DNA of 64,000 nucleotides from a virus (taxonomy: Duplodnaviria > Heunggongvirae > Uroviricota > Caudoviricetes): IMG/VR virus record IMGVR_UViG_3300037471_001079, positions 19,877-83,876 of that record; one strand, given 5' to 3'. The notes under the pieces were generated by a model, which saw only the letters and a program-made list of their open reading frames with translations, ran no database searches and was not told the origin of the DNA. A program made the translations under genes and the position numbers. Below are positions 32,722 to 63,974 of the stretch, piece after piece (positions within the stretch are counted from its first letter, which is position 1; the number at the start of each line of letters is the position of its first letter).

Positions 32722-33204
32722 ATGTCAATTCCTACTTACCCGACATTCCCGCCGAACGTGGGAATGTCACTGCAAGCTATTGCCTTCGCATTGGCGAAGG
32801 ACCCTGAATTTCTCGACCGACCAGAGTGTCCCTACCCAGCGCAGCTGAAAGAGTTCCTGGCCCGCCTGGTGGTGCCACCGCCGCCCGGTGGTGAGGGGGG
32901 GAATATGTTCGTCGGCGCCGACGGTGAGCGGGGCGACGACTACGAAATCCTGATCGACGAGATCGAGAAGTCGATCACCTCCATGCAGCAGCTGGAGCTG
33001 ACCATCAAGGACAGCAACGAGCGGCTGCAGATAGCGAAGGTAAAAGCTGCTCTTATCGACAAGTGGCTCAGCCAAAAAGAACGTCTTTTGAACTTGCGAT
33101 CATTGTCTCAGTTCCAGAAAATCGTGGTCGACACGATGGATGGTATTTTGAATAAAGACCAACGTACGGATTTTATGGAGAAAATTGTTGAATATCTTCG
33201 GTAA
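32722..33204 (+). CDS. Hypothetical protein (160 aa), first gene of the rightward operon
   Basis: ORF with a plausible start; C-terminal coiled coil; its stop overlaps the primase gene start by 20 nt. Confidence 0.45.
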   Translation: MSIPTYPTFPPNVGMSLQAIAFALAKDPEFLDRPECPYPAQLKEFLARLVVPPPPGGEGGNMFVGADGERGDDYEILIDEIEKSITSMQQLELTIKDSNERLQIAKVKAALIDKWLSQKERLLNLRSLSQFQKIVVDTMDGILNKDQRTDFMEKIVEYLR

Positions 33205-35650
33205 TAATTGCCAAAAGTACTGGGCGGCCGGGTTGCCGGTCATTCCGCTGATCAAGAACGACAAGCGCCCATTCCTCGGCGGCTGGCAGCGCATGGCCAC
33301 TCAGATGCCGACCGACGAAGAGAAGGCGCACTGGGCGGTCGAGCATGCCGACTGCAACATGGGCCTGGTGCTCGGACCGCAGTCCGGCCTGATCGCGCTC
33401 GACATCGACGTCGATGACCCGATCGTCATGAAGGTGCTCGATGCCGTCCTGCCCAAGAGCCCCTGGATCAGGAAGGGCGCCAAGGGTGAGGTGCGGATCT
33501 ATAAATTCACCGGCCAGGCCACGTTCAGGGTGCGAACGGAGGACGGTGGCACGATCTGCGAATTGCTTTCGCAAAGGACGCAGGTCGTGCTGCCGCCCTC
33601 GATCCACCCCAAGACCATGGCTCCATACACAGCCAACTGCGAGCTCCTGGACGTGATCGACCGGGTGCCGGTGCTGCCTCGCGACATCGAGGTCATCGTC
33701 AAGGCCGCCCTGGCGGCCGAGGGCATCGGCACCCAGACCGCCGGCAAGGTTGCCATTGCCTCCTGGGTGCCGGCTGGGGCTCGTGACAACGCCATGGTCG
33801 CCCACGCCGGCATCATGGCCAGGGGGGTGGTTCGTGGGGAGAGGTCCCTGCGCGAGGCCATGTCAGAGATGCACCACTGGGTCGACAGCTTCGTTGAGAA
33901 GGTGTTCGGCGACGAGCTCGACCCACAGAAGGGCATCCAGAAACTGATCGAGTTTCTGCGGAAAGACGTCTTGATCGCCAAGCGGCCCCTACCGTCCGGT
34001 TGGGACGATGGCCTCACCGACGAGGACAAGGAAAGGGTCGGCGTCGCTGACTTCGGCGCCGACAACATCAAGTATGGCTACACCAGGCTCTGGGATGACT
34101 TCCAGGCCGAGGTGTCAAAGGAAGGCATCCGGCCAGGCGACCAGGCCTGGCAACGGGCAGTCGAGACCACTCTCGACCGCATGGCTGCCAACAAGGACCT
34201 GACGGCGATCGAAGAGGATAGGCTCCTGGGTCTGATGGTCGACTCCTCGGCCCGCCAGATCACCAAGGGGGGTCTGCGTCGCGATCTGCGTCAGCGCCGG
34301 GTGCGGGATACGCTCGGCGATGATCATGCCTCGATTGCCTCGGCGGTGCTGGAGGATCTGTCCGCGGTTCATGGTCCGCTCCGGTTCACGTCCGGGGGTT
34401 GGGTCCACTGGCAGGGTGCCTGCTGGGAGCCGTTCGACGTCACCAGGATCAGGTCGCTCATCACCAGCAGCTATGGTGCGATCGAGGGGTCGAAGCGGTA
34501 TTCCGACTACTCCCAGGTCGAGAAGACCATGCAGATGCTGGAAGAGGCCCAGAAGCCGATCAAGGTGATCGACAAGAACGGCATCAACTTCGTGAATGGG
34601 GTTCTGACTGAAGATCTGGAGCTGATCCCGCACAACATGGACTACGGGATGACCTACTGCCTGCCGTTCCCGTACCTGCCCGACCAGGCCGGTAAGGTGT
34701 CGAAGTGGCTGGACATGCTCATCACCTATTGGGGTGACGACGAGGACTGCGCCGAGAAGATCGAGGCCTTGCGGGAAGCCATGGCTGCGACCCTGTTCGG
34801 CGTGGCTCCCAAGTACCAGCGCTCGTTCATCCTCTATGGGGTGGCCGGGTCGGGCAAGTCGCGCATCATCGAGATCATGGAGGGTCTGATGCCGAAGGGA
34901 TGCATCTCGCACGTCTCGCCCTTCGACTTCGACGACAAGTTCATCCCGGCGGCGATGGCCAACAAGCTGATGAATGTCGGCGGTGATCTGTCTGAGAAGC
35001 GGACGATCGGCGGCGAAATGTTCAAGAAGATCATCGGCGGCGAGACCATCACGGCCCAGCACAAGAACCAGCAGCCGTTCGAGTACAAGCCGATCTGCGC
35101 GCAGTGGTTCGGGTCCAATCATATGCCCAAGTCGACCGACTCGTCCGACGGCATGGGCAGGAGGTTCCTGTTCTTCAAGTTTTCCAAAGCGATCCCCGAC
35201 AAGGACAAGATCGAGGACTACCATCTGCAGGTCCTGCAGGAGGAACGGGAGGCGATTGCGGCCTGGGCCGTGGAGGGCTACCGAGCGCTGCGTGAGCGCA
35301 GGGGGTATACCCTTGCTGAGAGCCACAAGCGGTGTGTCGACGAGATGATGGAGCAGAACAATTCCGTCCGTTTTTTTATCTCGAGCCTCCTCGCTCAGGG
35401 GAGGCTACTGGTGGGAGAGCCAGCACACTACGGGAAGTCGCAAGATTCGACCACGAGCGAACCCCTGCACAGGGAATACTCCACTTTCTGCAGCTTGGTG
35501 GCAAATGTGCGGCATGTTTCATTGACGAAGTTTCAAGAAATGATGCAAGAATGCCAGGGGAAGTATGGCTTCTCGAAAATCATCGAGATGAAACCGAACG
35601 GGGCGCAGATAGTAAAGTGGAAGTACATCACACTTGTGGCCAAAAAATAG
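33185..35650 (+). CDS. DNA primase-helicase: N-terminal bifunctional primase/polymerase (PrimPol) domain plus D5/P4-alpha-type SF3 helicase
   Basis: PrimPol-like N-terminus (AAGLPVIPLIKNDKRPFLGGWQ, DIDVDD acidic cluster); Walker A GVAGSGKSRIIE in the C-terminal third; 821 aa. Confidence 0.75.
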   Translation: MLNIFGNNCQKYWAAGLPVIPLIKNDKRPFLGGWQRMATQMPTDEEKAHWAVEHADCNMGLVLGPQSGLIALDIDVDDPIVMKVLDAVLPKSPWIRKGAKGEVRIYKFTGQATFRVRTEDGGTICELLSQRTQVVLPPSIHPKTMAPYTANCELLDVIDRVPVLPRDIEVIVKAALAAEGIGTQTAGKVAIASWVPAGARDNAMVAHAGIMARGVVRGERSLREAMSEMHHWVDSFVEKVFGDELDPQKGIQKLIEFLRKDVLIAKRPLPSGWDDGLTDEDKERVGVADFGADNIKYGYTRLWDDFQAEVSKEGIRPGDQAWQRAVETTLDRMAANKDLTAIEEDRLLGLMVDSSARQITKGGLRRDLRQRRVRDTLGDDHASIASAVLEDLSAVHGPLRFTSGGWVHWQGACWEPFDVTRIRSLITSSYGAIEGSKRYSDYSQVEKTMQMLEEAQKPIKVIDKNGINFVNGVLTEDLELIPHNMDYGMTYCLPFPYLPDQAGKVSKWLDMLITYWGDDEDCAEKIEALREAMAATLFGVAPKYQRSFILYGVAGSGKSRIIEIMEGLMPKGCISHVSPFDFDDKFIPAAMANKLMNVGGDLSEKRTIGGEMFKKIIGGETITAQHKNQQPFEYKPICAQWFGSNHMPKSTDSSDGMGRRFLFFKFSKAIPDKDKIEDYHLQVLQEEREAIAAWAVEGYRALRERRGYTLAESHKRCVDEMMEQNNSVRFFISSLLAQGRLLVGEPAHYGKSQDSTTSEPLHREYSTFCSLVANVRHVSLTKFQEMMQECQGKYGFSKIIEMKPNGAQIVKWKYITLVAKK

Positions 35651-35735: not shown

Positions 35736-35765
35736 AAAAAAAGGCGCCGAAAGGCGCCTTTTTTA
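35736..35765. terminator. Rho-independent terminator after the primase-helicase gene
   Basis: AAAAAAA-GGCGCC-GAAA-GGCGCC-TTTTTT hairpin. Confidence 0.75.
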
Positions 35766-36171
35766 TTGGAAACGAACAGAGTTAGTATAACTCAGGCTTT
35801 TTAGGGGTCGACGGCGGCCAGGTTGGCGTGCGATGTACAGGTCGTCGCCGGCAACGTAGTTCGGCCAGCCTGGATCGGAGCCTGAAGATGAATGAGCGCC
35901 TCTAAAGCGTACTAGTATAGGAAATCTGAAATTTTGGGGGGCGTAAAATTGGCATACTCGCCCCCCGAGGCCGTGTTTTGCCTGGGAAAACCTACCACTC
36001 CCTCCCATTTTACCTCACTATTCTGGCCCATACGGCGTGGTACTGTTGGTCATCGGCCGACGGGGTCGATGCCGGACCGGGGCCGCTTCCCCGAGGGGAG
36101 ACCTGTGAGCATAGCGATGTCGGACAAACGTCCTGAGGGACGCAAGGCGGAGCTATGCCACTGAGAAACCT

Positions 36172-36183
36172 GGACAATTGTCC
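36172..36183. promoter_or_regulatory. Operator-like perfect palindrome GGACAATTGTCC upstream of the 36208 gene (imperfect copy GGACAAACGTCC at 36122..36133)
   Basis: 12-bp perfect palindrome; the same or a near-identical sequence recurs at 37111, 38089 and 40397, each just upstream of or overlapping a gene start. Confidence 0.5.
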
Positions 36184-36207
36184 CTCACATACGGAGCTTG
36201 AACGATC

Positions 36208-36912
36208 ATGTCACAGTTCACTGACAAGCGCCTCGATGCGCTCACGAAGAAAGTCGCAACCGAGTTCGGAACCAAAACGATCGGCGTCATCGCCGCCTAC
36301 GTCATGAACCTGCACCATGGCCGCAACGGCGGTGTGGTCGCCGAAGGGATGCGGCTCGATGCCGGCGGGCCGGACAGCATCAATTCCCGCGTCTTCAAGA
36401 TCGGTGACTTGATCGCCGAACGCGCCAAGGTCGCCTATGGCGACAATGCCAATGAGAGTGTCGCCTTCGCCGCCCTTCAGACGTGGATCAAGCAGGAAAA
36501 GGGCGATCAGTCCATGTTCGACACGTGGCTGCCGCGTCTGCTCAATCAGCCGACGAAAGCGGAGAAGGAAGCCACGGCCAAGCTGGAAGCGGATACCCGC
36601 GTCGCCAAGGCGGTTGCCGCCAAGGTCAAGGGCGACGAAAAGGCCGAAGACTTGGAGCGGCTGAAGGCGGAGGCGGAGCGTGCCGACAAGCGGTCGCAGG
36701 CCGTCACGAAGCAAATCGCCACCTTGGGCAAGTGGGCGGGTGGCGCCGACCTCGCCGACATACCGGCCGCGGTGTATGCGCTCTTGGAGCGCTTGGAGAC
36801 CGCCAAGGCGTCGGCCTTGCTGTCGGAGATCGGGCGGGACGTCGAGCGCCGCCTGGAGGCCCTCGCCAAGGCTGGTGCCGACACCCTGGTGCCCGCCCAG
36901 CAGGCGGCCTGA
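36208..36912 (+). CDS. Hypothetical early protein (234 aa), Ala/Lys/Glu-rich C-terminus
   Basis: ORF with SD-like ACGGAGC; no motif recognised. Confidence 0.5.
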   Translation: MSQFTDKRLDALTKKVATEFGTKTIGVIAAYVMNLHHGRNGGVVAEGMRLDAGGPDSINSRVFKIGDLIAERAKVAYGDNANESVAFAALQTWIKQEKGDQSMFDTWLPRLLNQPTKAEKEATAKLEADTRVAKAVAAKVKGDEKAEDLERLKAEAERADKRSQAVTKQIATLGKWAGGADLADIPAAVYALLERLETAKASALLSEIGRDVERRLEALAKAGADTLVPAQQAA

Positions 36913-37052
36913 GGGGGGAGCGCGGGAGGGGGAAACCCCTCCCAGCCAGGCCGTGGCCGTGGCGCACGCTCACGACCACACCCACGTCTGCGCCCACGCC
37001 CGCGCGTAAGTGCATGGCGTGGTTGGGAATGTGAGTGTTGCTCACAATCACG

Positions 37053-37071
37053 CTCGGAAGCTGGTCCAAAT
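37053..37071. promoter_or_regulatory. Perfect inverted repeat GTCCAAATTAATTTTGGAC (operator-like)
   Basis: 19-bp palindrome sharing TTGGAC/GTCCAA half-sites with the GGACAATTGTCC family. Confidence 0.45.
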
Positions 37072-37110
37072 TAATTTTGGACAACGGCGAAGCCTGCCCA
37101 AATCAATCCC

Positions 37111-37122
37111 GGACAATTGTCC
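37111..37122. promoter_or_regulatory. GGACAATTGTCC palindrome inside a conserved ~45-bp element (ACGGCGAAGCCTGCCCAAATCAATCCCGGACAATTGTCC) upstream of the 37142 gene
   Basis: same element recurs at 38060..38100 with 36/45 identities. Confidence 0.5.
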
Positions 37123-37141
37123 AAACCCTGGAGTTCACATC

Positions 37142-37768
37142 ATGACCTGGTCGATGCCGACGGACGACGAGATGCGGACGATCATCGGTTGCGCCGCCAA
37201 CACGCCCTACCAGCCGGCCACGTTCATCTACGGCGATCGTTACAAGAACGTGAGCCACGACCTGATCCACGTCATCGATACGATCGGGCCGATGATTGCT
37301 GGCTCGCTTCATTTCAAGCGGTTGTGTGCGGTGTCGGTCGAGAGCCTGGGTCTCGTCGACTTCAGCGTGTTGACCCCACGTGTGATCGAGATCGCCCTCG
37401 ATCTCGTGGAAAGCTGCCGTTCGGAGCGATTGACGGCGCTCAGGGACTCACTCACGGCCGCGAGAGAGGGTCAGGCTCCGGCTCGGATCGAGAGCCCGAA
37501 CGCGTCCCGGCAGTACCTCAACTGGGCGATCCAGTCCTACGGCCGTGCCGTGGCCTCGGGTGAGATGTATCAGGAGGGTCTCATCTCCTACGAGGAGCAT
37601 TGCCAGGTCTACGGCGATGAGCTGACGCGAGCGATCATGTTCTCGGCTCTTGCTGTCGTCTACCTGCGGGACAGCGCCTATGTGAACGAGTTCGCCAAGC
37701 AGCTGACCGAGGTCCTCATGTACGACCTCAACGTGCCGGGTGGGGTCTACGCCTGCCTCGCTCACTGA
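37142..37768 (+). CDS. Hypothetical early protein (208 aa)
   Basis: ORF beginning MTWSMPTDDEM; no motif recognised. Confidence 0.5.
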   Translation: MTWSMPTDDEMRTIIGCAANTPYQPATFIYGDRYKNVSHDLIHVIDTIGPMIAGSLHFKRLCAVSVESLGLVDFSVLTPRVIEIALDLVESCRSERLTALRDSLTAAREGQAPARIESPNASRQYLNWAIQSYGRAVASGEMYQEGLISYEEHCQVYGDELTRAIMFSALAVVYLRDSAYVNEFAKQLTEVLMYDLNVPGGVYACLAH

Positions 37769-37827
37769 ACGTGTGGCCACCCCGGTCGGCGATTGTCAGC
37801 CGACCGGGGGTGTGGGGAGGATTGTCC

Positions 37828-38025
37828 ATGATGACGCTCGAAGAGCAGCTGCACATCCAAGCTCATGATCTGTTGGATGAGCAGATCCAAAACCGCATCC
37901 GATTGAACTCGATCAAGTCTAGGGTCCAGGATGCGATCGATGCCATCGAGATCAACGCGCCGGAGATCGCTCTGGCTCGGCTCAAGTCGGTGCTCAGGCT
38001 GATCGCCGAGCAAAAGCTGAACTAA
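37828..38025 (+). CDS. Small coiled-coil protein (65 aa)
   Basis: strong SD GGGGAGG 6 nt upstream of ATGATG. Confidence 0.45.
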   Translation: MMTLEEQLHIQAHDLLDEQIQNRIRLNSIKSRVQDAIDAIEINAPEIALARLKSVLRLIAEQKLN

Positions 38026-38088
38026 ACGACCACACCACCAGTTTCGACCCTGATCGAAACGACGGCGAAGCTTGCCCAAGTGAATGGA

Positions 38089-38100
38089 GGACAAATGTCC
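38089..38100. promoter_or_regulatory. GGACAAATGTCC palindrome overlapping the start codon of the 38095 micro-ORF
   Basis: second copy of the conserved 45-bp promoter/operator element (ACGACGGCGAAGCTTGCCCAAGTGAATGGAGGACAAATGTCC). Confidence 0.45.
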
Positions 38101-38199
38101 TGGGATTTCAACGACATCATGACCTGGGTTTACATCGGCGATGCGCTGATCATCCCGGCAGTCATCTTCACACTCTGGCATTCATTCGCAAGGGGCTGA
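38095..38199 (+). CDS. 34-aa hydrophobic micro-protein (MSWDFNDIMTWVYIGDALIIPAVIFTLWHSFARG)
   Basis: single TM-like segment; start codon embedded in the operator palindrome; too short for the ORF track. Confidence 0.3.
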   Translation: MSWDFNDIMTWVYIGDALIIPAVIFTLWHSFARG

Positions 38200-38203
38200 G
38201 ACA

Positions 38204-38602
38204 ATGGCCAGCAAGCAAACGCAAAACGGCGGGAGCGCTCCCCGCACCGCCTATCGCCACTGGTCAATTGGCCGTGACCACACGGTCGGCGCCTTCTCGG
38301 ACACACAAGCCAAGGGCGGCTGCCCTTGGAACGATCCGCCTGATCGTGAAGACTCCGTCGCCCGTATCAAAGTCTTAGGTGTCGACATCAAGCGGGACAA
38401 GCTGGTGTTCGAACACTCCGAACTACGTTCGAACTTCCGTAAAGGAAGGTCTTTCGTGCCAGAGAGTGGTGACTTCGACCTGTTTGACGCCGCCACTGGT
38501 GTCCGGGTTCTGATCGGTGTGTCGGATCGAGCAATCAAGGCCTTCATCCGACGCGAAAAACTGAAGGCCGGCGAGTATTGGACGGAGGACACCATGCGCT
38601 AG
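38204..38602 (+). CDS. Hypothetical protein with a C-terminal excisionase/MerR-like HTH (candidate regulator)
   Basis: C-terminus VSDRAIKAFIRREKLKAGEYW resembles the HTH_17 (Xis/AlpA-type) recognition pattern; SD AAGGGG upstream. Confidence 0.4.
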   Translation: MASKQTQNGGSAPRTAYRHWSIGRDHTVGAFSDTQAKGGCPWNDPPDREDSVARIKVLGVDIKRDKLVFEHSELRSNFRKGRSFVPESGDFDLFDAATGVRVLIGVSDRAIKAFIRREKLKAGEYWTEDTMR

Positions 38603-39005
38603 TCAGCAAGTGAACCACGCTTTGAAGCGACGGCGTGGTTCGTATCCCTAGTCGCAACGGCGCTCCCACACTGGCTGAGCTAGAGGCATCCTCGCTGTAT
38701 GCCTGGCTATGAGGCCACCCCATCATATGCTGAACCTGAGCATGTTCTAAAACTGCTCAATCAATTCTAGAGGCCCTAGGAGAGTCATACACGGCTTTCT
38801 AGGGGTCTTTGGCTACGTGGGTAGCTCCCCACCCAGTACTTGGCCGTCCTAGGCCTGTTTCCTGCCACTACAGACTCCCTGCCACAACCTGGCTTCGCCT
38901 GGTTCACGCACTGAGTCCAAAACGAACGAGATTGTCGAGTGCTGGATGAGCCAGCAACGGCGAAGCTATGCCCCGACTTTGTCCTCTGGATAAGGAGTTA
39001 TCCGA

Positions 39006-39191
39006 ATGATCACCCGCTTCTTCAATTGGATGGACGACAATCCCGGCAAGGTCATGACCGTTCAGGCCGCCGGCTTTGGCTCGATGCTCTACAACATCAT
39101 CGGCATCGATGAGCCGGGCAAGCTTGTCCTCGTCATCACCCTCACCATTCTGGCGACGGTCGGCCTCACCCTGGTCCAGAGGAACATCTGA
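39006..39191 (+). CDS. Small membrane protein (61 aa)
   Basis: strong SD AAGGAG 8 nt upstream; C-terminal hydrophobic helix LVLVITLTILATVGLTLV. Confidence 0.5.
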   Translation: MITRFFNWMDDNPGKVMTVQAAGFGSMLYNIIGIDEPGKLVLVITLTILATVGLTLVQRNI

Positions 39192-39355
39192 TGTCCAGGA
39201 TCGAGCAGGTTTTACAGCACAAGGCTGTCCTACGACAGAAAGTGTGGCATTTGAGCAACAAACAGGCCATGAGGCTTGTAAGGCTCTACGCCGACGCCGT
39301 GCTGGCCATTAGGCTCCGTTACGACGAGGCCGTGATCATTATCGATCAACTCTAG
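39191..39355 (+). CDS. Small hypothetical protein (54 aa), translationally coupled (TGATG overlap)
   Basis: ATG overlaps the upstream stop by 1 nt; ends just before a terminator hairpin. Confidence 0.35.
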   Translation: MSRIEQVLQHKAVLRQKVWHLSNKQAMRLVRLYADAVLAIRLRYDEAVIIIDQL

Positions 39356-39386
39356 GGGCTGAACAGCCCCTAACCTCTTGATTTTT
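39354..39386. terminator. Rho-independent terminator (AGGGGCTG-AA-CAGCCCCT followed by a T-rich tract)
   Basis: perfect 8-bp stem with a T-run downstream. Confidence 0.6.
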
Positions 39387-39520
39387 ATAACCTTATTTCT
39401 ATTTCTTTTTATACTTTTTATTTTCCCCACATCAGGTGCTTCCAGGAGAAAATTTGAAGAGATAATATAACTCAATAATATATTTCTTTAGAGCCATCCA
39501 CTTCCCCCCGCATAAAAAGT
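39372..39520. other. ~150-bp AT-rich island (about 25% GC) in a ~60% GC genome, directly upstream of the HNH endonuclease gene
   Basis: TTTTTATAACCTTATTTCTATTTCTTTTTATACTTTTTATTTTCC...AATAATATATTTCTTTAGAG; sharp compositional break. Confidence 0.6.
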
Positions 39521-39524
39521 AGTG

Positions 39525-40013
39525 ATGAAAAACCGAAAAGCTCTTCGTTCAAAAGCATTTAGACGTGGTTGGCTACCCAAGCAACCCTCCCGGCCATCCC
39601 GCAAAACCCACTACAAAACGGCCGAACGACTGGCCAAAGAGCATATCTTGGCCTTGTTCCCGGATCGCGAAGCCTGCTGGCCCTGGCCTGGGCCGTTCCG
39701 GCTCCCCATTCCGAAGTCCTATCAGGGCACGATCTATCGCTACCGCGGCCCATACCTCGCCATCGGCGGCCGGCAGTTCAGCTCCCTGCCGGCCTTGTTC
39801 AACCCGCCTCCCAAAGGTTTCAGTCTTCGCAGGACCTGCGAAACGCCCGACTGCATCAACCCCGACCATTGGGAGCCTGATCTGCGTCCAGTCAAGAACT
39901 GGATCATACGCAATCCGGAACTGTCGTTCCCGGAAGTCGCTGGCAGTGAATTCTGCCAGAACGTCGACCCATCAGCTTTGATGGACATCTACGCCACCGT
40001 TCGAGGAGATTAG
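39525..40013 (+). CDS. HNH-family (HNH_3-like) homing endonuclease
   Basis: ACWPWPG...GTIYRYRGPYLAIGGRQFS...RRTCETPDCINPDHWE fits the CWxW...G...HR...C.NP.C.NP.HL HNH_3 pattern; preceded by the AT-rich island. Confidence 0.55.
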   Translation: MKNRKALRSKAFRRGWLPKQPSRPSRKTHYKTAERLAKEHILALFPDREACWPWPGPFRLPIPKSYQGTIYRYRGPYLAIGGRQFSSLPALFNPPPKGFSLRRTCETPDCINPDHWEPDLRPVKNWIIRNPELSFPEVAGSEFCQNVDPSALMDIYATVRGD

Positions 40014-40017
40014 CCCT

Positions 40018-40344
40018 ATGATCAACAACGTCGACATCCTCAAATATGCCAGGAAGCTGGCCGAGCAGAAGCCCGCTTCCGTCCGTGCCTTCACCCCTCT
40101 CGGTCAGGTCTATATCAGCCCGACCAAGTGCATCGACGAGAGCTTGAGGCAGCTCGGTCTCCCAGCCTGGCCCGCACTCGGCCTGTTCTACCTGCTCGAC
40201 AACGCGGTCCCGATCAAGACCAAGACCGCCGAGGAATACTTCGTCAACAGGGCGAACGCCCAGATCATGATGGTGTTCGACGACGCGATCGCCCACCAGG
40301 CCCGGCTCGACCAGGAGTTCGGCGAGCTGCAGCTCGCGGCCTGA
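40018..40344 (+). CDS. Hypothetical protein (108 aa)
   Basis: ORF with SD GGAG upstream. Confidence 0.45.
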   Translation: MINNVDILKYARKLAEQKPASVRAFTPLGQVYISPTKCIDESLRQLGLPAWPALGLFYLLDNAVPIKTKTAEEYFVNRANAQIMMVFDDAIAHQARLDQEFGELQLAA

Positions 40345-40396
40345 CCAAAAAGCCTTTTCCAATTCTGGCCAGCGGAGCCAGGTCCCCAATAAACCC

Positions 40397-40408
40397 AGAC
40401 AATTGTCC
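40397..40408. promoter_or_regulatory. AGACAATTGTCC operator-like palindrome variant upstream of the 40433 gene
   Basis: GACAATTGTC core shared with the 36172, 37111 and 38089 sites. Confidence 0.4.
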
Positions 40409-40432
40409 AACCCTGAAAGGGAATGCACTGCC

Positions 40433-40807
40433 ATGACCAACGACAACGCCACCTACGCCGTCCGTGCCATCATCACCAACGACACGTACGAGAACCTCCG
40501 CCCCCTGGCCGACGTCGCCGTTCGTGCCCCGGACGTGCTCATGGCCGTGATCAATAACGACCCCATCCCGGTCAAGGAGGTCTTCCTCCCCAACCCGAGC
40601 TATGACGACCTGGTCCGTGCCATCAAGATGGACATCAAGACGACGGGCACCGACCCGGAGCGCTGGATGAGCCTGGTCCGTGCCGGCGCCAAGATCGAGG
40701 CCATTAAGGAGTACAGGAACCAGACCGGCATCGGTCTCAAGAGCTCGAAGGACTTCATCGAGTTCATGTGGGACTTCATCCGCCCCCCAGTGGCGGTGGC
40801 GGCCTGA
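40433..40807 (+). CDS. Hypothetical protein (124 aa)
   Basis: preceded by the conserved 25-nt element CCCTGAAAGGGAATGCACTGCCATG, which also precedes the 40895 gene. Confidence 0.45.
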   Translation: MTNDNATYAVRAIITNDTYENLRPLADVAVRAPDVLMAVINNDPIPVKEVFLPNPSYDDLVRAIKMDIKTTGTDPERWMSLVRAGAKIEAIKEYRNQTGIGLKSSKDFIEFMWDFIRPPVAVAA

Positions 40808-40894
40808 TCAAGACTAACACCCACACCGTGGCGCCTGGCAGCGCCACGGTCATGGTCAGAGTTTGATTTCACCCCTGAAAGGGAATGCACTGTC

Positions 40895-41506
40895 ATGTCT
40901 GCCATTATCCATCTCGACGAAGCTACCGCCCGTCGCATCCTCGCCACCGTTGACGCCGGCCTCTCCCACGGCCTAGGCGCCCCTCACCCTGGCCACATGT
41001 GTGTCGAGGCCGCGGTCTGCTTCGCTCTGGACCTGCCTCACAGCGACGACCCAAAGTGCGTCGCCCAGTCGCTCAGGAAGCTGAAGATCGCGCTGAACGA
41101 CCTTGCTTGGCCCTCTCCTGCGGAGAGGGCCAAAGCGCTCCGCAGACTGGCCATCGCCCAACTCGGCACCAACAAGGACCTCGACGAGCTCGAGTTCACC
41201 AAGCGTGTCCTCGATCTGATCAACACCACGATCCTGCCGATCGAGAAGGCCTACTTCGACACCCACCACGACACCTGGTGGCAGCCCTTCGTGACCGATT
41301 GGGCCAAGGATATCGCCTTGGATATCGACGAAGGCTTCTTCGACGACAGCCACGGCGGCGCCCTCGGCGACATCGTCGGCAAGAGCGTGCGCTACACCGA
41401 CTACGATTTCGCCCACGTGGCCCAGTTCTGCGAGGGCGTGGTCCAGATCCTGATCGCCATGGGTGCTAAGGGCACCGAGTGGCTGCACCTGACCGAGGCC
41501 CACTAA
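40895..41506 (+). CDS. Hypothetical protein (203 aa)
   Basis: preceded by CCCTGAAAGGGAATGCACTGTCATG; stop TAA lies inside an ACTAACACCCACA motif. Confidence 0.5.
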   Translation: MSAIIHLDEATARRILATVDAGLSHGLGAPHPGHMCVEAAVCFALDLPHSDDPKCVAQSLRKLKIALNDLAWPSPAERAKALRRLAIAQLGTNKDLDELEFTKRVLDLINTTILPIEKAYFDTHHDTWWQPFVTDWAKDIALDIDEGFFDDSHGGALGDIVGKSVRYTDYDFAHVAQFCEGVVQILIAMGAKGTEWLHLTEAH

Positions 41507-41600
41507 CACCCACAATCACGGTCACACCCTCCCTCGGTCACACCCTCATTCACGGTGAGAGTGTGACAACTATCACAATTGTGAAAGGAACCTCTCTCGG

Positions 41601-42462: not shown

Positions 42463-42534
42463 CAGCGCTTTATCCCTAAGGCCACCAGCGGACTCTCTAG
42501 CGCGGCCAGAATCAATTCTAGAAGGAACCCTTCC

Positions 42535-43018: not shown

Positions 43019-43119
43019 CACCCACAGTCACAGTCACGCTCATTCAAGCCACACTCTCACTCACGGTGAGAGTGTGAAGACGCTTGTTCAATCGGGTCGG
43101 TGCTGCGCACGACCCTCAT

Positions 43120-43197
43120 GCTCCCATCGTCTAACTGGCCTAGGACCCGGCGCCGCTCCGCGCCGGAATGCAGGTTCGAATCCTGCTGGGAGCGCCA
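43120..43197 (+). tRNA. tRNA-like gene 1 (78 nt, encoded CCA) with a non-canonical anticodon arm (6-nt or 8-nt loop CCGCTCCG containing CTC)
   Basis: perfect 7-bp acceptor stem GCTCCCA/TGGGAGC, discriminator G, CCA; D arm GTCT/GGAC with A14 R15 G18G19 A21; T arm GCAGG-TTCGAAT-CCTGC; anticodon stem CGGCG/CGCCG closes an 8-nt loop only. Confidence 0.55.
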
Positions 43198-43226: not shown

Positions 43227-43616
43227 ATGTACGACCCCACCTACGCCCAGGCTCTGTTCGACGAGTCCTACACCAAACTGGCAGCCCAGGGCTGTGCCGC
43301 CGTCAACGGCCTCGGCCACTGCAAGTACCGTACCGACCAGGGGCATGCCTGCGCCGTCGGCGTTCTCCTGACCGACGAGGAATACGACCCTCAGATGGAC
43401 GAGGAGAACATGACGGTCACTCTTATGAGCGACCGCGGTCTGCTTCCTGCCAGGCTCGAGCCCTACATCGACCTGTTGGTCGCCCTACAGTCGAAGCACG
43501 ACTACTATCTGTATGCCCTGGACGGCATCAGTTACCCCACCGGCATTCAGCCGTGGAAGAACGAGCTGCGTACCGTGGCCGCGAACCATGGCCTGTCGGC
43601 GGCAATCCTCTCATGA
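43227..43616 (+). CDS. Cys-containing small protein, member of a 3-member paralog family (C.YR...G..CAVG.L.TDEEY.P)
   Basis: GHCKYRTDQGHACAVGVLLTDEEYDPQMD vs 45743 (GKCKYRASDGSVCAVGALIPDEVYDPRVE) and 48003 (PRCLYRGPGGRKCAVGILITDEEYKPEMD); SD AAGGGAA. Confidence 0.5.
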   Translation: MYDPTYAQALFDESYTKLAAQGCAAVNGLGHCKYRTDQGHACAVGVLLTDEEYDPQMDEENMTVTLMSDRGLLPARLEPYIDLLVALQSKHDYYLYALDGISYPTGIQPWKNELRTVAANHGLSAAILS

Positions 43617-44456: not shown

Positions 44457-44815
44457 CGGCCTCCGTGTTCCCGATCACTCTTCGCTGCGACCACACTGGC
44501 TGGAGCGCCTACGACTTCCGTGATGCGTTCCTCGCCGCCAAGCCGGCCGGCCTCACCTACTACGCCTACGACACAATCATCCACAGCCGGACCGAAGTCG
44601 AGTTCGTTGCCTACGACATGCTCGACAACTGTTACGGCGGCGTCGGCAAGGAGAAGGCCAGGTTCAGGGCCACAGTCTCCAGGGATCTCACCGACGAGGC
44701 TGTGAAGAAGCAGGTCTACCTCGTCGCCCAGGACCGGCGTGAGAGAGAACTGGATCAACGAGAAGAGTTGATCATCCGCGCCTATGCGGCCGAGATCGAG
44801 CGACAGCTCGACTAA
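44453..44815 (+). CDS. Hypothetical protein (120 aa)
   Basis: ATGA overlap with the upstream gene; stop TAA inside an ACTAACACCCACA motif, followed by a perfect UUCG-tetraloop hairpin. Confidence 0.45.
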   Translation: MTASVFPITLRCDHTGWSAYDFRDAFLAAKPAGLTYYAYDTIIHSRTEVEFVAYDMLDNCYGGVGKEKARFRATVSRDLTDEAVKKQVYLVAQDRRERELDQREELIIRAYAAEIERQLD

Positions 44816-44885
44816 CACCCACAGTCACAACCTGGCTTCGCCAGGTTCACACTCATGGTCTGAGTGTAATTTCCAAGTTACCTAG

Positions 44886-44962
44886 GCTCCCGTCGTCTAA
44901 CTGGACTAGGACGGTCGGCCCCTCAGCCGCCCATGCACGTTCGAGTCGTGCCGGGAGCGCCA
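44886..44962 (+). tRNA. tRNA-like gene 2 (77 nt, encoded CCA) with a weak, non-canonical anticodon stem (loop region CCCCTCAG containing CTC); possibly a pseudo- or variant tRNA
   Basis: acceptor GCTCCCG/CGGGAGC, discriminator G, CCA; D arm GTCT-AACTGGACTA-GGAC; T arm GCACG-TTCGAGT-CGTGC; only a 4-bp anticodon stem (CGGC/GCCG) with a 6-nt loop can be drawn. Confidence 0.45.
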
Positions 44963-46694: not shown

Positions 46695-46768
46695 TCAATC
46701 AAGCTCCCATCGTCTAGCGGCCCAGGACCCCGCCTCCTCACGGCGGTGACGTCAGTTCGAATCTGGCT
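46693..46768 (+). tRNA. tRNA-like gene 3 (76 nt, encoded CCA), canonical cloverleaf; anticodon loop TCCTCAC suggests CUC (Glu) but position 33 is C rather than U
   Basis: acceptor GCTCCCA/TGGGAGC; D arm GTCT-AGCGGCCCA-GGAC (G18G19); anticodon stem CCGCC/GGCGG with a 7-nt loop; T arm GTCAG-TTCGAAT-CTGGC; starts inside the stop codon of the upstream gene. Confidence 0.6.
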
Positions 46769-46815
46769 GGGAGCGCCACTAACATCGTTTTTGCCTTTTC
46801 AAGGATTGCAACGCA

Positions 46816-52530: not shown

Positions 52531-52531
52531 C

Positions 52532-52684
52532 ATGCAGTTCAACCCAGGCACCTTCACCGCCGACATCCAGCTCCTGCCGCCATACCTGAATGACCTAGTC
52601 TTTCAAGAGGCGGACTGGTTTGTCGAACCTGATGACATCCTCGACCTTGATATCGAGGTCGAGAGGGACGAGGACGAGTACTGA
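52532..52684 (+). CDS. Small acidic protein (50 aa)
   Basis: ATG immediately after the upstream stop; too short for the ORF track. Confidence 0.3.
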   Translation: MQFNPGTFTADIQLLPPYLNDLVFQEADWFVEPDDILDLDIEVERDEDEY

Positions 52685-61239: not shown

Positions 61240-61566
61240 ATGGCTTTTAAAATCCTGACCCCGCTTCCGAAGAAGCGGGCAAGCAAGCCCGGCTTCTCAG
61301 TGACGAAGCAGGGCCAGGGCGAGGTCAAGCTGCCCGACGACATCTCCGCTCAGTTTCCCAATGGAACGAAGTTCGATGTTATGGAGGGCGACGGCCCCGA
61401 CACCGGCTGGTATGCCCTCGTGCCCACCACCGAGAGCAATCGCCCCTCCCTCACCAACGGCCGGCTCCGCAGCCCACTGCTCGCCAGAGGGCTCGAGCCT
61501 TCCAAGCGCAAGGAGGTGACCTTCGAGGTGAAGGACGGCTCCATCTTCTTCAAGAGGCCTGGGTGA
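61240..61566 (+). CDS. Hypothetical protein (108 aa)
   Basis: first ORF after the terminator/structured region. Confidence 0.45.
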   Translation: MAFKILTPLPKKRASKPGFSVTKQGQGEVKLPDDISAQFPNGTKFDVMEGDGPDTGWYALVPTTESNRPSLTNGRLRSPLLARGLEPSKRKEVTFEVKDGSIFFKRPG

Positions 61567-62240
61567 GGTTCTCTCTCACTCTGGTTTCCAGGAACGCCAA
61601 GACCGGACCAATGCCAGTTTCCACATCGAGCTCGGACACCTGTCCGAGCTCGTGTCGTTTGAGAGGCAACGGCTGCTACGCCGAATTTGGTCCCTTGGCG
61701 CTCCACTGGCGAAATGGTCTGACATTATCGTGGACAGAGTTCCTGGAGGCGGTCGCGGACCTTCCCCGGCGGCGCCCCTGGCGCTATGGACAGGCAGGTG
61801 ACTTGCCGCGAGGGAGGGATGACAAGTTAGCACTGGCTAAGGCCAACGACCGGCGCAATGTGATAGCGTTCACCCATGACAGGGATCTGGACACCCTTCG
61901 CGAAATGACGGATATGGGATTCCATATCAATCTTTCAGCCGATCATTTATCGGAGGCAGACAGTCTGGCTGATACTGGGATGTCCGTGGCCACGGTCTTG
62001 CCTTCGGTTTATCATAAAAACAAGACGGAATCGCTCACGGAGTACCGAAACCGCTTGGGTGGGAAGCTGAAGCAGCTCACCCCAGCAGGCCGGACAATAG
62101 CAATTTGTCCAGCCACTTACAGCAAAACGACGTGTCTGGACTGCCAATTGTGTACGAGGCCCCGTAAAAACGGCGTCATCATTGGTTTTCCCGCACATGG
62201 AACGGGACGGCGGAAAATAGATGAAGCATACATAACGTAA
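61563..62240 (+). CDS. Cys-rich hypothetical protein (225 aa; GTG start or internal ATG at 61611)
   Basis: CPSSCRLRGNGCYAEFGP and CPATYSKTTCLDCQLC cysteine clusters. Confidence 0.4.
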   Translation: MRFSLTLVSRNAKTGPMPVSTSSSDTCPSSCRLRGNGCYAEFGPLALHWRNGLTLSWTEFLEAVADLPRRRPWRYGQAGDLPRGRDDKLALAKANDRRNVIAFTHDRDLDTLREMTDMGFHINLSADHLSEADSLADTGMSVATVLPSVYHKNKTESLTEYRNRLGGKLKQLTPAGRTIAICPATYSKTTCLDCQLCTRPRKNGVIIGFPAHGTGRRKIDEAYIT

Positions 62241-62513: not shown

Positions 62514-62712
62514 ATGGGGTGGGTGAGATAGGGGGGATTGATATAAAATGCGATTGTTGTGGCGCTGTTAACACATCGGTATGCAAACCCGCAGGGGGAC
62601 ATAAAAATCCCATAAAAACCGCTTCCGAAATAAGACCACTTCGTGGCATTGGTCTCATCACAGGTGAGGCGCCGCCGGCCGGGGGCGCTTGGCAGATTCC
62701 GTAGAGGCGACC

Positions 62713-63120
62713 ATGCTAGTCCCACTAGTACCAACGATACAAAGTAGAGTACAAATATCCAAACGCGTGATTTATAACTGGGCTCAGCGAAAGATTATTC
62801 CAGGCTGTATTCAAATCAATCGGACTTGGTTTGTATCTTTATCCATTCTAGAAAAATGGATTACTGAGCGGAAGGAACAATCATGCGAGAAATATACGAA
62901 CGAGCCGACAGCCCCCACTGGCAAGCCTGGATTGTCGTCGGAGGCCACCGCAAGCGGATATCGACCGGTGTCCCCGTCCATCCAGATACCCCAGTCGCCC
63001 GTCGGCGAGCTGCCGAGGTCGCGAGGGAAAGGGAAGATCACGAGAACGAGGTTCTGCGAACACGTTCGCTCGTTACATTCCAAGATGCCGTCTACGCCTT
63101 CTTCAAACACAAGGAGCTAG
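62713..63120 (+). CDS. xis: Excisionase/AlpA-like HTH protein (Xis candidate); the ORF continues 238 nt into the integrase gene in another frame
   Basis: ISKRVIYNWAQRKIIPGCIQINRTWFVSLSILEKWI matches the HTH_17/AlpA pattern; directly upstream of int. Confidence 0.4.
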   Translation: MLVPLVPTIQSRVQISKRVIYNWAQRKIIPGCIQINRTWFVSLSILEKWITERKEQSCEKYTNEPTAPTGKPGLSSEATASGYRPVSPSIQIPQSPVGELPRSRGKGKITRTRFCEHVRSLHSKMPSTPSSNTRS

Positions 63121-63974
63121 CCCCACCCTCGGTCGAGTCCTACGAGCTGATGTTCGACTATATCTACGGCGCGCTCGGCAATCTACCGCTCGTCGAGATG
63201 AAGCCGAAGCTTCTCTACGAGTTGATCGCGTGGGGACAGGACCACGGCCTGGCTGACGGGCGCATCCGTCACATGCTGAAGGTGCTGTCGTCGCTGCTGA
63301 GCTGGTCGATCAAACACTACAAGCGCTACGACGACATGGTGGTGCCGGAGGTCAACACGGTCCTGCAGCTCGATCTCTCTGACCTGAAACGTTACAAGCG
63401 GGTTCCGAGAGCGTTGACGCCCGACGAGCTGCGCCGCCTGATGCAGGCGGTGGAGACTGAAGGCCGTGAGATCGACAAGGACATCTACAAACTTCTGGTT
63501 GAAACCGGTATGCGCCGCGAAGAGCTACTCGGCATGCCATGGCGGGAGGTCAATCTGGACGACGGCGTGATCCGCCTCGACCCCGAGCGGTCCAAGACCG
63601 ACCAAGGCCGGTTTATCCCGCTGTCCGACACTGCGCTGACCATCCTGCAGCGCCGCAAGGCAGGGTCTCCTGATCACGATCACGTGATCACCTATCCGGA
63701 CGGTCGGCGCATGACCTACCCGGAATATTTCTGGGACCGCATCCGCAAGGCGGCGAAGCTGCCTGGCGTACGAATTCACGATTTGCGTCATACGTTTGCG
63801 ACGATGACGAGAGTAGGAGGACTGGCAAGAGAAGACAGGAAGGCCATCATGGGTCATTCGTCGGAAGAGGCGCATGACCTATACGCAGCGGCGAGCGTGG
63901 ACGCGCTCCGCGAGGTGCTCAACCGAGCCTCGCCGCTGACACAACTGGAGCACAGAACTTGCACACCGACCTGA
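62883..63974 (+). CDS. int: Tyrosine recombinase / phage integrase
   Basis: N-terminal arm-binding type start (MREIYERADSPHWQAWIVVGGHRKRISTGV); catalytic region RIHDLRHTFATMT, GHSSEEAHDLYAA (R...HxxR...Y); at the right edge of the phage region. Confidence 0.8.
   Translation: MREIYERADSPHWQAWIVVGGHRKRISTGVPVHPDTPVARRRAAEVAREREDHENEVLRTRSLVTFQDAVYAFFKHKELAPPSVESYELMFDYIYGALGNLPLVEMKPKLLYELIAWGQDHGLADGRIRHMLKVLSSLLSWSIKHYKRYDDMVVPEVNTVLQLDLSDLKRYKRVPRALTPDELRRLMQAVETEGREIDKDIYKLLVETGMRREELLGMPWREVNLDDGVIRLDPERSKTDQGRFIPLSDTALTILQRRKAGSPDHDHVITYPDGRRMTYPEYFWDRIRKAAKLPGVRIHDLRHTFATMTRVGGLAREDRKAIMGHSSEEAHDLYAAASVDALREVLNRASPLTQLEHRTCTPT

Follow-up and report, generated by a model that had tools for sequence, protein, structure and literature searches.

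Palindromes before the first early genes of an uncultured siphophage: candidate operators in a hairpin-box-palindrome module that recurs in distant relatives

The 64-kb stretch of DNA analyzed here (the window; positions 19,877 to 83,876 of IMG/VR record IMGVR_UViG_3300037471_001079) belongs to an uncultured siphophage with a genome of ~84 kb. In front of its first early genes lies a family of short palindromes of the type GGACAAWTGTCC, and we propose, with moderate confidence, that these are operator-type DNA sites of one phage-encoded, dimeric, sequence-specific protein that represses those genes. A phage-encoded dimer with two-fold symmetry would read the GGACAAWTGTCC sites as DNA and, once bound, would repress the first block of early genes or block transcription through it. 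Because this block adjoins, and probably lies within, the terminal repeat, it would probably be the first DNA expressed after injection. The sites behave as recognition sites for a single two-fold symmetric factor, as a preceding sequence-only reading of this DNA had supposed, and the architecture recurs on the early side of 22 relatives. The window palindromes thus appear to exemplify a regulatory design that is itself conserved but whose recognition sequences differ by lineage; such differences would correspond to swapped specificity as in heteroimmune phages.

The complete genome, a circle of 83,749 bp, was assembled from contigs that overlap and are 100% identical, namely two pieces of a Logan contig, and several metagenomes hold contigs 100% identical to the window. 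At one mismatch or fewer, GGACAAWTGTCC gives 9 strand-hits against 0.55 expected, a number reached by none of 100 shuffles, and the 8-bp core ACAATTGT occurs four times against 0.45 expected. Among the 37 perfect 12-bp palindromes of the genome, GGACAATTGTCC is the only one to repeat (twice). The family is restricted to 5.5 kb (36122-41584), where every site is intergenic or lies on a start codon. All five 12-bp palindromes listed by the sequence-only reading (36122, 36172, 37111, 38089 and 40397) were found as described, whereas its statement that each lies within ~30 nt of a gene start or overlaps one applies to the last four but not to 36122, which is 74 nt away. The possibility that the motif is equally dense inside coding regions was checked genome-wide: there is no further copy at one mismatch or fewer, and none within a gene.

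The most upstream site is GGACAAACGTCC (36122..36133; one mismatch, a centre variant), the distal member of a tandem pair spaced 50 bp centre-to-centre. Its partner, the perfect palindrome GGACAATTGTCC at 36172..36183, ends 24 nt before ATG 36208 of the gene that we call gene 1 (234 amino acids, aa), a gene call confirmed by L026. The same perfect sequence at 37111..37122 ends 19 nt before ATG 37142 (208 aa). The palindrome GGACAAATGTCC at 38089..38100 contains ATG 38095 of a called 34-aa open reading frame (ORF; -6 nt); an alternative start at ATG 38119 would place it 18 nt upstream, and the leader ACATCATGACCTGG is common to ATG 38119 and 37137-37150. This site is followed by a 132-aa gene (38204-38602). 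A half-palindrome absent from the earlier list, GACTTTGTCC, ends at 38984, 21 nt before ATG 39006. Further downstream, AGACAATTGTCC (40397..40408; one mismatch) ends 24 nt before ATG 40433 of a 124-aa protein resembling the L7/L12 C-terminal domain, and the perfect palindrome TCACAATTGTGA (41573..41584), likewise absent from the earlier list, keeps the central 8 bp with both arms symmetrically altered, 16 nt before ATG 41601. The half-site-like GGAGGATTGTCC (37816..37827, +), with two mismatches and abutting ATG 37828, is a weak candidate. A split site, GGACAA-N7-TTGTCC at 62092, was rejected as probably a chance occurrence inside a DUF7227 gene.

The palindromes do not stand alone. Four good modules in the window show the same order of parts, namely a hairpin (hairpin A), a box, the palindrome, and a Shine-Dalgarno (SD) sequence with ATG. 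Hairpin A is separated by 3-4 nt from the box GGCG(A/G)AGC(C/T/TA)TGCC, which is followed after 11-12 nt by the palindrome and, after another 3-12 nt, by the SD. Taken generally, the box begins 2-4 nt past a small hairpin of free sequence, and ~11-13 nt separate it from the palindrome. The hairpin stem has 4-7 bp and is different in each copy (all +): GTCC-TGAG-GGAC in module 1 (36130..36141, 4 nt before the box), GTCCAAA-TTAAT-TTTGGAC in module 2 (37064..37082, z = -2.8), TTTCGA-CCCTGA-TCGAAA in module 3 (38042..38059, z = -3.1) and GCTGG-ATGAG-CCAGC in module 4 (38941..38955). The second of these had been described as a related 19-bp palindrome at 37053; it actually lies at 37064-37082, is an imperfect inverted repeat with 7-bp arms and a 5-nt spacer, and presents the half-sites in the opposite order (GTCC...GGAC). 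The conserved boxes (+) are GGCGGAGCTATGCC (36146..36159), GGCGAAGCCTGCCC (37086..37099) and GGCGAAGCTTGCCC (38064..38077), while in module 4 the box GGCGAAGCTATGCCCC is fused directly to the half-palindrome (38959..38984, +). A variant box, GGGGAGACCTGTGAGC (36095..36110, +), stands 11 nt before the distal palindrome and is like the box variants of relatives L070, L108 and L052; a degenerate box, CGGAGCCAGGTCCCC, lies upstream of the 40397 palindrome. In the whole genome, ACGGCGAAGC occurs exactly at 37084, 38062 and 38957 only. The repeated context of ~45 bp noticed earlier was recovered as 42-nt copies at 37081-37122 and 38059-38100 (81% identical), with a weaker third copy at 36142-36183; modules 2 and 3 have ~70 bp in common, including the start-codon context.

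Neither hairpin A nor the palindromes resemble intrinsic terminators, since no T run follows either. The RTG of the box was considered as the start codon of a leader ORF and rejected: it is in frame in some copies and out of frame or opening a short upstream ORF (uORF) in others, and two window copies have CTG or TTG instead. In module 4, a 12-codon uORF starts at the box ATG (38968), its TGA overlapping ATG 39006 (ATGA), and an inverted repeat at 38988-39003 (GGATAA-GGAG-TTATCC) puts the SD of the 61-aa gene starting at ATG 39006 in a hairpin loop.

The comparison with relatives covered 3 loci obtained via exact-protein look-up and 80 obtained from IMG/VR via primase alignment, cited by L numbers where needed. 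Every fetched locus has the primase, then a gap, then a gene of ~220-290 aa (gene 1). The module recurs in 22 distant relatives, JWF/Seuss-like siphophages whose primases show 34-47% identity: upstream of the first post-primase genes stand, in this order, a GC hairpin, the conserved box GGCGRAGCYRTGYC, a spacer, a lineage-specific palindrome, the SD and the ATG. The box is found verbatim as GGCG[GA]AGC[CT][AG]TG upstream of gene 1 in 14 loci, and a Gibbs sampler gave a family consensus of ~GGGAGAGGTGTGTCC / GGCGGAGCYRTGCC at 10.1 bits, whereas shuffled controls gave 6.7-7.2 bits. Hairpin A keeps its position but not its sequence: in 14 of 17 modules its end lies 2-3 nt upstream of the box (mean z = -1.76). 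Box and palindrome are separated by 3 to 60 nt.

Each lineage has its own palindrome: TGCTCAATTGAGCA in L039, L041 and L043; TTCC-N7-GGAA in L038, L040 and L045; TCCCCCGCGGGGGA in L048 and L052; TGCGCAAGTTGCGCA in L056; TTGGGAAATTTCCCAA in L091, L108 and L109; AGTCCTAGCTAGGACT (five copies) in L088; CCAAAAATTTTTGG (six) in L044; TGCGCAC-N-GTGCGCA (five) in L058; and GGTTCGTTACGAACC (two) in JWF. When each of the 22 relatives was searched with its own palindrome, the 128.7 kb beyond the primase contained 62 matches (40 of them in addition to the reference copy), whereas the 133.9 kb on the structural side contained none. The extra copies lie preferentially at -10 to +45 nt from an ORF start (27 of 40, against 45.5% of random positions; p = 0.004), and some follow stop codons or precede terminators instead. 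Tandem pairs recur as well (25 bp apart in L052, 30 bp in L081, 66 bp in L041/L043). In L039, L038 and L040 the second copy includes the ATG of the second gene, as does the 38089 site of the window, and in L058 and L056 a constant interval separates the palindrome from a conserved SD leader. The window's exact code of box and palindrome is not shared with any other sampled phage: the box as an 18-mer had 25 single matches in IMG/VR, all in a coding MYGEACP(I/N) context and hence chance or unrelated, and the gapped box-plus-palindrome pattern had none in IMG/VR and three single chance matches in JGI metagenomes. Acinetobacter phage TCUP2199 was too diverged to serve as a module comparison. No description of these motifs was found in the literature on JWF-like phages.

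The pattern of variation bears on the nature of the recognized molecule. Among 23 one-sided changes, 13 affect the innermost 1-2 bp and 7 the outermost bp, with arm positions 3-5 nearly invariant; such arms around a tolerant centre would be expected if a dimer contacts the half-sites. In many sites the symmetry extends across the centre, something that an RNA hairpin loop would not need. One-sided changes on the sense strand leave G.U in 2 cases and A.C in 8; since G.U does not exceed A.C, there is no wobble signal of a sense-RNA stem. For the five window modules, RNA folding gave no stability beyond that of shuffles (z -1.4 to +1.1), and Rfam gave no match at gathering score in the window, with chance-level matches alone in 35.6-41 kb. 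Between palindrome centre and ATG there are just ~20-37 nt, of which the SD takes the 8-15 nt nearest the ATG; this position is compatible with either a -10/+1 or a leader location. Because the centres are too near the ATG for an activator site upstream of -35, we infer repression or a roadblock and not activation.

Several observations weigh against DNA operators. A promoter could not be assigned beside any of the sites, so that an operator at a promoter is not supported by the scan: the sigma-70 search returned no + strand site in 32.5-41.5 kb, although the host promoter consensus may differ from the one scanned, and manual placement gave -10 candidates (TTGTCC, ATGTCC) without the A required at position 2. 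The repeated context can thus not be upheld as the promoter it had been taken for, also because the sigma-54 spacing is short and the box-palindrome distance varies so widely in the family. For sigma-54 (TGGCAC-N5-TTGC, with GG and GC exactly 10 nt apart), the GG/GC spacing is 1 nt short in GGCGGAGCTATGC and 2 nt short in GGCGAAGCCTGC; reading the box as an extracytoplasmic function (ECF) sigma factor promoter (GGAAC-N16-CGT) fails on spacing too, and LexA-, CRP- and FNR-type host sites were rejected after testing or inspection. A recognizable reader is likewise lacking. Pfam, PHROGs and NCBIfam searches of 55 + strand window proteins detected no helix-turn-helix (HTH), ribbon-helix-helix (RHH), CI/Cro or other DNA-binding family, which agrees with the earlier remark that no CI/Cro pair is evident and gives no support to the RHH proteins it had named as candidates. 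The remaining 20 kb of the genome adds just GapR, plus an Xis-like HTH_17 ORF (62689-63120), and 150 early ORFs of 20 relatives gave one weak HTH_23 match and otherwise no DNA-binding family. The absence of a known domain may leave room for a reader with a new fold. Finally, six symmetric double changes (~4-5 independent events) were counted against ~0.7 expected, an excess that would favour selection for base pairing but could also come from template-switch correction of quasi-palindromes; four independent phages have copies that cover the start of their second gene, an arrangement that would suit a translational operator equally well; and hairpin A points to some role for single-strand structure.

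These last points lead to the explanation that we rank second, behind the moderately favoured DNA operators, and regard as a serious but clearly less probable rival: the palindromes would be short 5'-leader hairpins of a polycistronic early mRNA, at which a phage-specific RNA-binding protein occludes the SD/AUG, much as MS2 coat protein or T4 RegA and gp43 do. The sites indeed cover start codons or precede them by 9-31 nt, the start-codon copies and the fixed SD distance in L058 and L056 match such a role, and compensatory double changes exceed expectation (e.g., TCAC-AATT-GTGA at 41573 versus GGAC-AATT-GTCC). The failure to detect a promoter beside the sites or a DNA-binding family favours RNA as well, as does the neighbouring hairpin A with its covariation-like conservation of structure. 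Yet the palindrome stems would reach 4-6 bp only, and their predicted folds do no better than shuffles. The loop varies within the phage (AATT, AAAT, AAAC) while the arms stay constant, the reverse of known coat-protein and boxB operators; symmetry through the centre and the lack of a G.U preference argue the same way, and in relatives some copies follow stop codons or precede terminators, away from starts.

A third reading involves RNA polymerase. The hairpin-box-palindrome would then be an unconventional promoter or a pause/antitermination loading site, where polymerase is halted just upstream of the palindrome, at the T before the final G of GGCGGAGCYRTG, and a lineage-specific factor is loaded or blocks passage; we consider this, including the placement of the halt, unlikely. 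The box is conserved far better than the proteins it precedes (the bit score over controls and the 14 exact loci given above), the position of hairpin A is kept, and, given the constant 11-12 nt spacing in the window, a polymerase halted at the box would have the palindrome at its leading edge. Most box variants fit the elemental pause consensus GG-N8-YG, and the 12-nt boxes, which agree with GG-N8-TG, share 9/12 positions with the RfaH ops element (GGCGGTAGnnTG). However, GG-N8-YG is low in information and may be matched by chance. The two short boxes of the window retain only G(-10). In the his pause the hairpin lies ~11-12 nt from the pause end, compared to 14-15 nt here; no NusG/KOW, Q-like or N-like protein was detected; and box and palindrome are anywhere from 3 to 60 nt apart in more distant relatives. 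Less probable still is a non-regulatory origin: the repeats would be left over from duplicated or recombined cassettes, or be small mobile elements between genes, or form DNA structures for replication or packaging near the terminal repeat. Duplication did spread modules 2 and 3, as their ~70 shared bp indicate, a leader has been duplicated without a palindrome (40411, 40873), the region adjoins the putative terminal-repeat boundary, and other repeat families (CACCCACA..., GGCCGTGGCCGTGGC) occupy the same intergenic spaces. Duplication alone leaves unexplained, however, why each of 22 diverged phages retains multiple copies of a palindrome of its own at equivalent positions, why the arms are conserved, and why the structural side has none. 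More speculatively, and with rather low probability, the module could be a family-wide, so far undescribed early-gene switch of terminal-repeat siphophages of Alpha- and Betaproteobacteria, combining a structure-only hairpin, a pause/ops-like box and a lineage palindrome with a new-fold reader. That reader might be the hypervariable, -AA-tailed and predicted all-helical product of gene 1, a self-limiting timer acting by halting or reloading polymerase or by blocking ribosomes, not by promoter occlusion; this part is equally tentative.

Returning to DNA operators and their dimeric reader, the 132-aa protein (38204-38602) had been put forward as an HTH_17-like regulator. It has no Pfam match at E<=0.1, HTH_17 (PF12728) included, and the sole HTH_17 domain is in ORF 62689-63120 (29.2 bits versus a cutoff of 27). 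A homologue search of 5.8 billion proteins matched the 132-aa protein only to itself, and an exhaustive HMMER search of 1.8 billion gave one weak repeat-protein match, without informative domain. GapR was rejected as the palindrome reader: it binds AT-rich DNA without a specific sequence. Gene 1 (36208-36912) is hypervariable, with no BLAST alignment between subgroups; a homologue search matched only itself, and the family alignment of gene 1 proteins hit no Pfam family. Its product is predicted, at low confidence, to be all-helical. AlphaFold single-sequence models were too poor for use (pLDDT 40 for the 132-aa protein, 47 for gene 1). Of 22 gene 1 proteins, 16 end in -AA, an end that recalls ssrA-type ClpXP degrons and suggests regulated proteolysis. 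The gene 1 protein is a candidate, albeit a speculative one, for a short-lived regulator reading the palindromes.

A tyrosine integrase gene (62883-63974, +) has ~240 nt of its 5' part in common with the excisionase-like HTH_17 ORF (+), which is in another frame. The integrase is at the end of a lower-GC segment that also has the DUF7227 gene (61563-62240), and this arrangement suggests an integration module or a nested mobile element.

With respect to the ends of the genome, JWF has a 1,466-bp direct terminal repeat starting 175 nt upstream of its gene 1. The JWF repeat boundary (...AAAATTTTCAAAAATTTTACAATTG/TGGGG, record position 1466; a slash marks the boundary) aligns with a conserved AAAAATTTT...TG/TGG box in the relatives, found in the window at ~35925-35952, which is likely a family signal for terminase cutting or the terminal-repeat boundary. 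Since the JWF and Lumi repeats and the aligned boundary box place them there, the first window modules probably lie inside the terminal repeat. A conserved TACCACTCCYTCCC / GTGNTACCCTTC element comes after the box. In Lumi, a 2,298-bp repeat is at the same place (PMC9959647).

The structural genes occupy 97-32592 on the - strand, with a 1974-aa tape-measure protein among them. The + strand arm begins at 32722 with a conserved 160-aa gene, followed by a P4-type primase-helicase (33185-35650, +) with Prim-Pol, D5_N and DUF5906 domains. A bidirectional intrinsic terminator read directly from the sequence (35736..35764; A7-GGCGCC-GAAA-GGCGCC-T6), where weak Rfam matches to terminator-type sRNAs also occur, stands at the end of the primase operon. 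Because this strong terminator closes the operon, the genes from 36208 onward need their own promoter(s). The nearest isolates by primase (~38-41% identity) are Caulobacter phage Seuss, Achromobacter phages JWF and 2-1, and Xylophilus phage Lumi; the closest metagenomic primases, some of them in Rhizobiales chromosomes or on 80-kb contigs, reach just 47%. No close relative emerged when 50,697 phage records were searched by megablast and tblastn with the region and with gene 1, and single-protein locus searches of IMG/VR with gene 1 and primase gave none either; primase alignment alone succeeded. An 82-aa GapR-type DNA-binding protein (PF10073, E 1.5e-31) is encoded at L122 15867-16115, ~4.9 kb past the window end. 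This protein and the primase homologues suggest an alphaproteobacterial host.

The early arm contains further features beside the modules. The 124-aa protein (40433-40807, +) directly 3' of a palindrome has a weak match to the ribosomal L7/L12 C-terminal domain (E 1e-4), and an early ORF of one relative matches that family at E 2.9e-7. The exact 20-nt leader CCCTGAAAGGGAATGCACTG occurs twice (40411-40430 and 40873-40892), before the consecutive ATG 40433 and ATG 40895, and a palindrome accompanies just the first copy. The 13-mer AATCAATTCTAGA is exact at 38759-38771 and 42510-42522 (4 matches at two mismatches or fewer versus 0.69 expected), the latter copy forming AGAAT-CA-ATTCT 15 nt upstream of ATG 42535. 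The spacer between gene 1 and gene 2 is an alternating purine-pyrimidine, GCGC/GTGC-rich tract in many family members (window 36945-37012; L038 12400-12500; L040 13430-13530; L080, L109), and GGCCGTGGCCGTGGC (window 36947) also recurs in intergenic DNA of phage TCUP2199, whose primase is just 30% identical. A structured-looking non-coding block of ~130 nt, not seen in the window and without Rfam match, is common to L038 (12936-13060) and L040 (14230-14375): gtgagagccc...gggaggggtcc..gactggatatggatg..ggacgtgtgccggaagctcgggagagcg...acgggtcaacacacgggaggc.aagccctctcaca.

After several stop codons (40808-40870, 41507-41570, 43019-43090, 44815-44870, 38885-38915) stands a motif CACCCACA(R)TCAC(R)GTCAC followed by a 10-12 bp hairpin, e.g., TCACACTCTCAC...GTGAGAGTGTGA, with GGTCACACCCTC iterated at 41520-41560; these motifs may be processing or stabilizer hairpins, or iterons. 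An AT-rich island (39356-39524) precedes an HNH endonuclease gene (39525-40013), probably a homing-endonuclease insertion; elsewhere in relatives, HNH/endonuclease genes are found just after the primase (L038 10831-11334; JWF gp003 and gp004). Three mutually similar tRNA-like genes (43120-43197, 44886-44962, 46703-46778), each beside one gene of a paralogous family (repeats at 43350, 45860 and 48123), were called by ARAGORN as one tRNA-Glu(CUC) and two with abnormal anticodon loops ('gctc', 'ct'), all of them below the gathering score of the Rfam tRNA model. The triple tRNA-like repeat is also present in L038 (15260, 15505, 15804), and an RtcB RNA ligase is encoded nearby in the window (57508-58827). 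The 256-aa protein at 53696-54466 (+) matches NCBIfam NF052498 'TIGR-Tas system RNA-guided endonuclease' (108.5 bits versus a cutoff of 100, E 4.6e-31) and, weakly, IS110 transposase. In the ~600 bp of non-coding DNA upstream (52531-53196), four consecutive long hairpins (52693-52754, 52755-52832, 52897-52959, 52960-53043) may represent a guide-RNA array.

The site family provides a testable handle on the control of the first genes in a large, almost unstudied group of ~80-kb phages, whose hosts are Rhizobiales, Caulobacter, Achromobacter, Xylophilus and related bacteria and which also appear as prophages or 80-kb contigs in bacterial assemblies. A box better conserved than any early protein, next to a lineage-specific palindrome, is the pattern expected of an immunity or timing code. 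As no known DNA-binding domain is present, finding the reader could reveal a new regulator family, and the cultured relatives JWF, Seuss and Lumi make experiments feasible.

Among known systems, the closest functional analogues would be the phiC31 repressor regulon, the L5 stoperators and lambda-type operators, and the closest descriptive analogue the start-associated sequences (SAS) and extended SAS (ESAS) of Cluster K. In the Streptomyces phage phiC31, conserved inverted repeats (CIRs) are bound by the c repressor, and the repressor gene and promoters are known. The window shares with it many copies of one short inverted repeat in early-arm intergenic regions. The CIRs adjoin unusual, mutually similar early promoter sequences and one phage protein reads them all, whereas here neither repressor nor promoter is recognizable, the host is Gram-negative and a family-conserved box and hairpin stand beside the sites. 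The stoperators of mycobacteriophage L5 are 13-bp asymmetric sites with an orientation bias and a genome-wide spread. They are likewise dispersed, multi-copy sites in short intergenic spaces and can act post-initiation as roadblocks, but the window sites are symmetric and within 5.5 kb. In lambda OR/OL and heteroimmunity we find the same conserved half-sites, variable centres, tandem copies and specificity differing between related phages; in contrast to lambda, there are no CI/Cro genes and no divergent promoter pair, and the sites stand before at least five separate genes. The lambda nut site (boxA + boxB) and RfaH ops similarly set a conserved box and then, at a short fixed distance, a lineage-specific symmetric element in early-operon leaders, but this is a resemblance only: the boxA consensus is unmatched, the palindromes are symmetric through variable centres, and no N, Q or NusG-like protein was detected. 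The gp71 'stoperators' of L5/Cluster A are mentioned in PMC3203893, which describes SAS of Cluster K mycobacteriophages as a 13-bp asymmetric element at the position of the ribosome binding site (GGGATAGGAGCCC), of unknown function and reader, and ESAS as 17-bp arms with 4-13 bp spacers whose inverted-repeat consensus differs by subcluster. As with SAS/ESAS, the window elements are confined to the non-structural half, immediately upstream of start codons, and vary in sequence by subgroup. They are not members of that family: no such sequence occurs here, the elements are symmetric and upstream of the SD, and one compact 12-16 bp palindrome is combined with a separate upstream box. What sets the present case apart is, besides the lack of a recognizable regulator, a compact symmetric site accompanied by a family-conserved box and hairpin.

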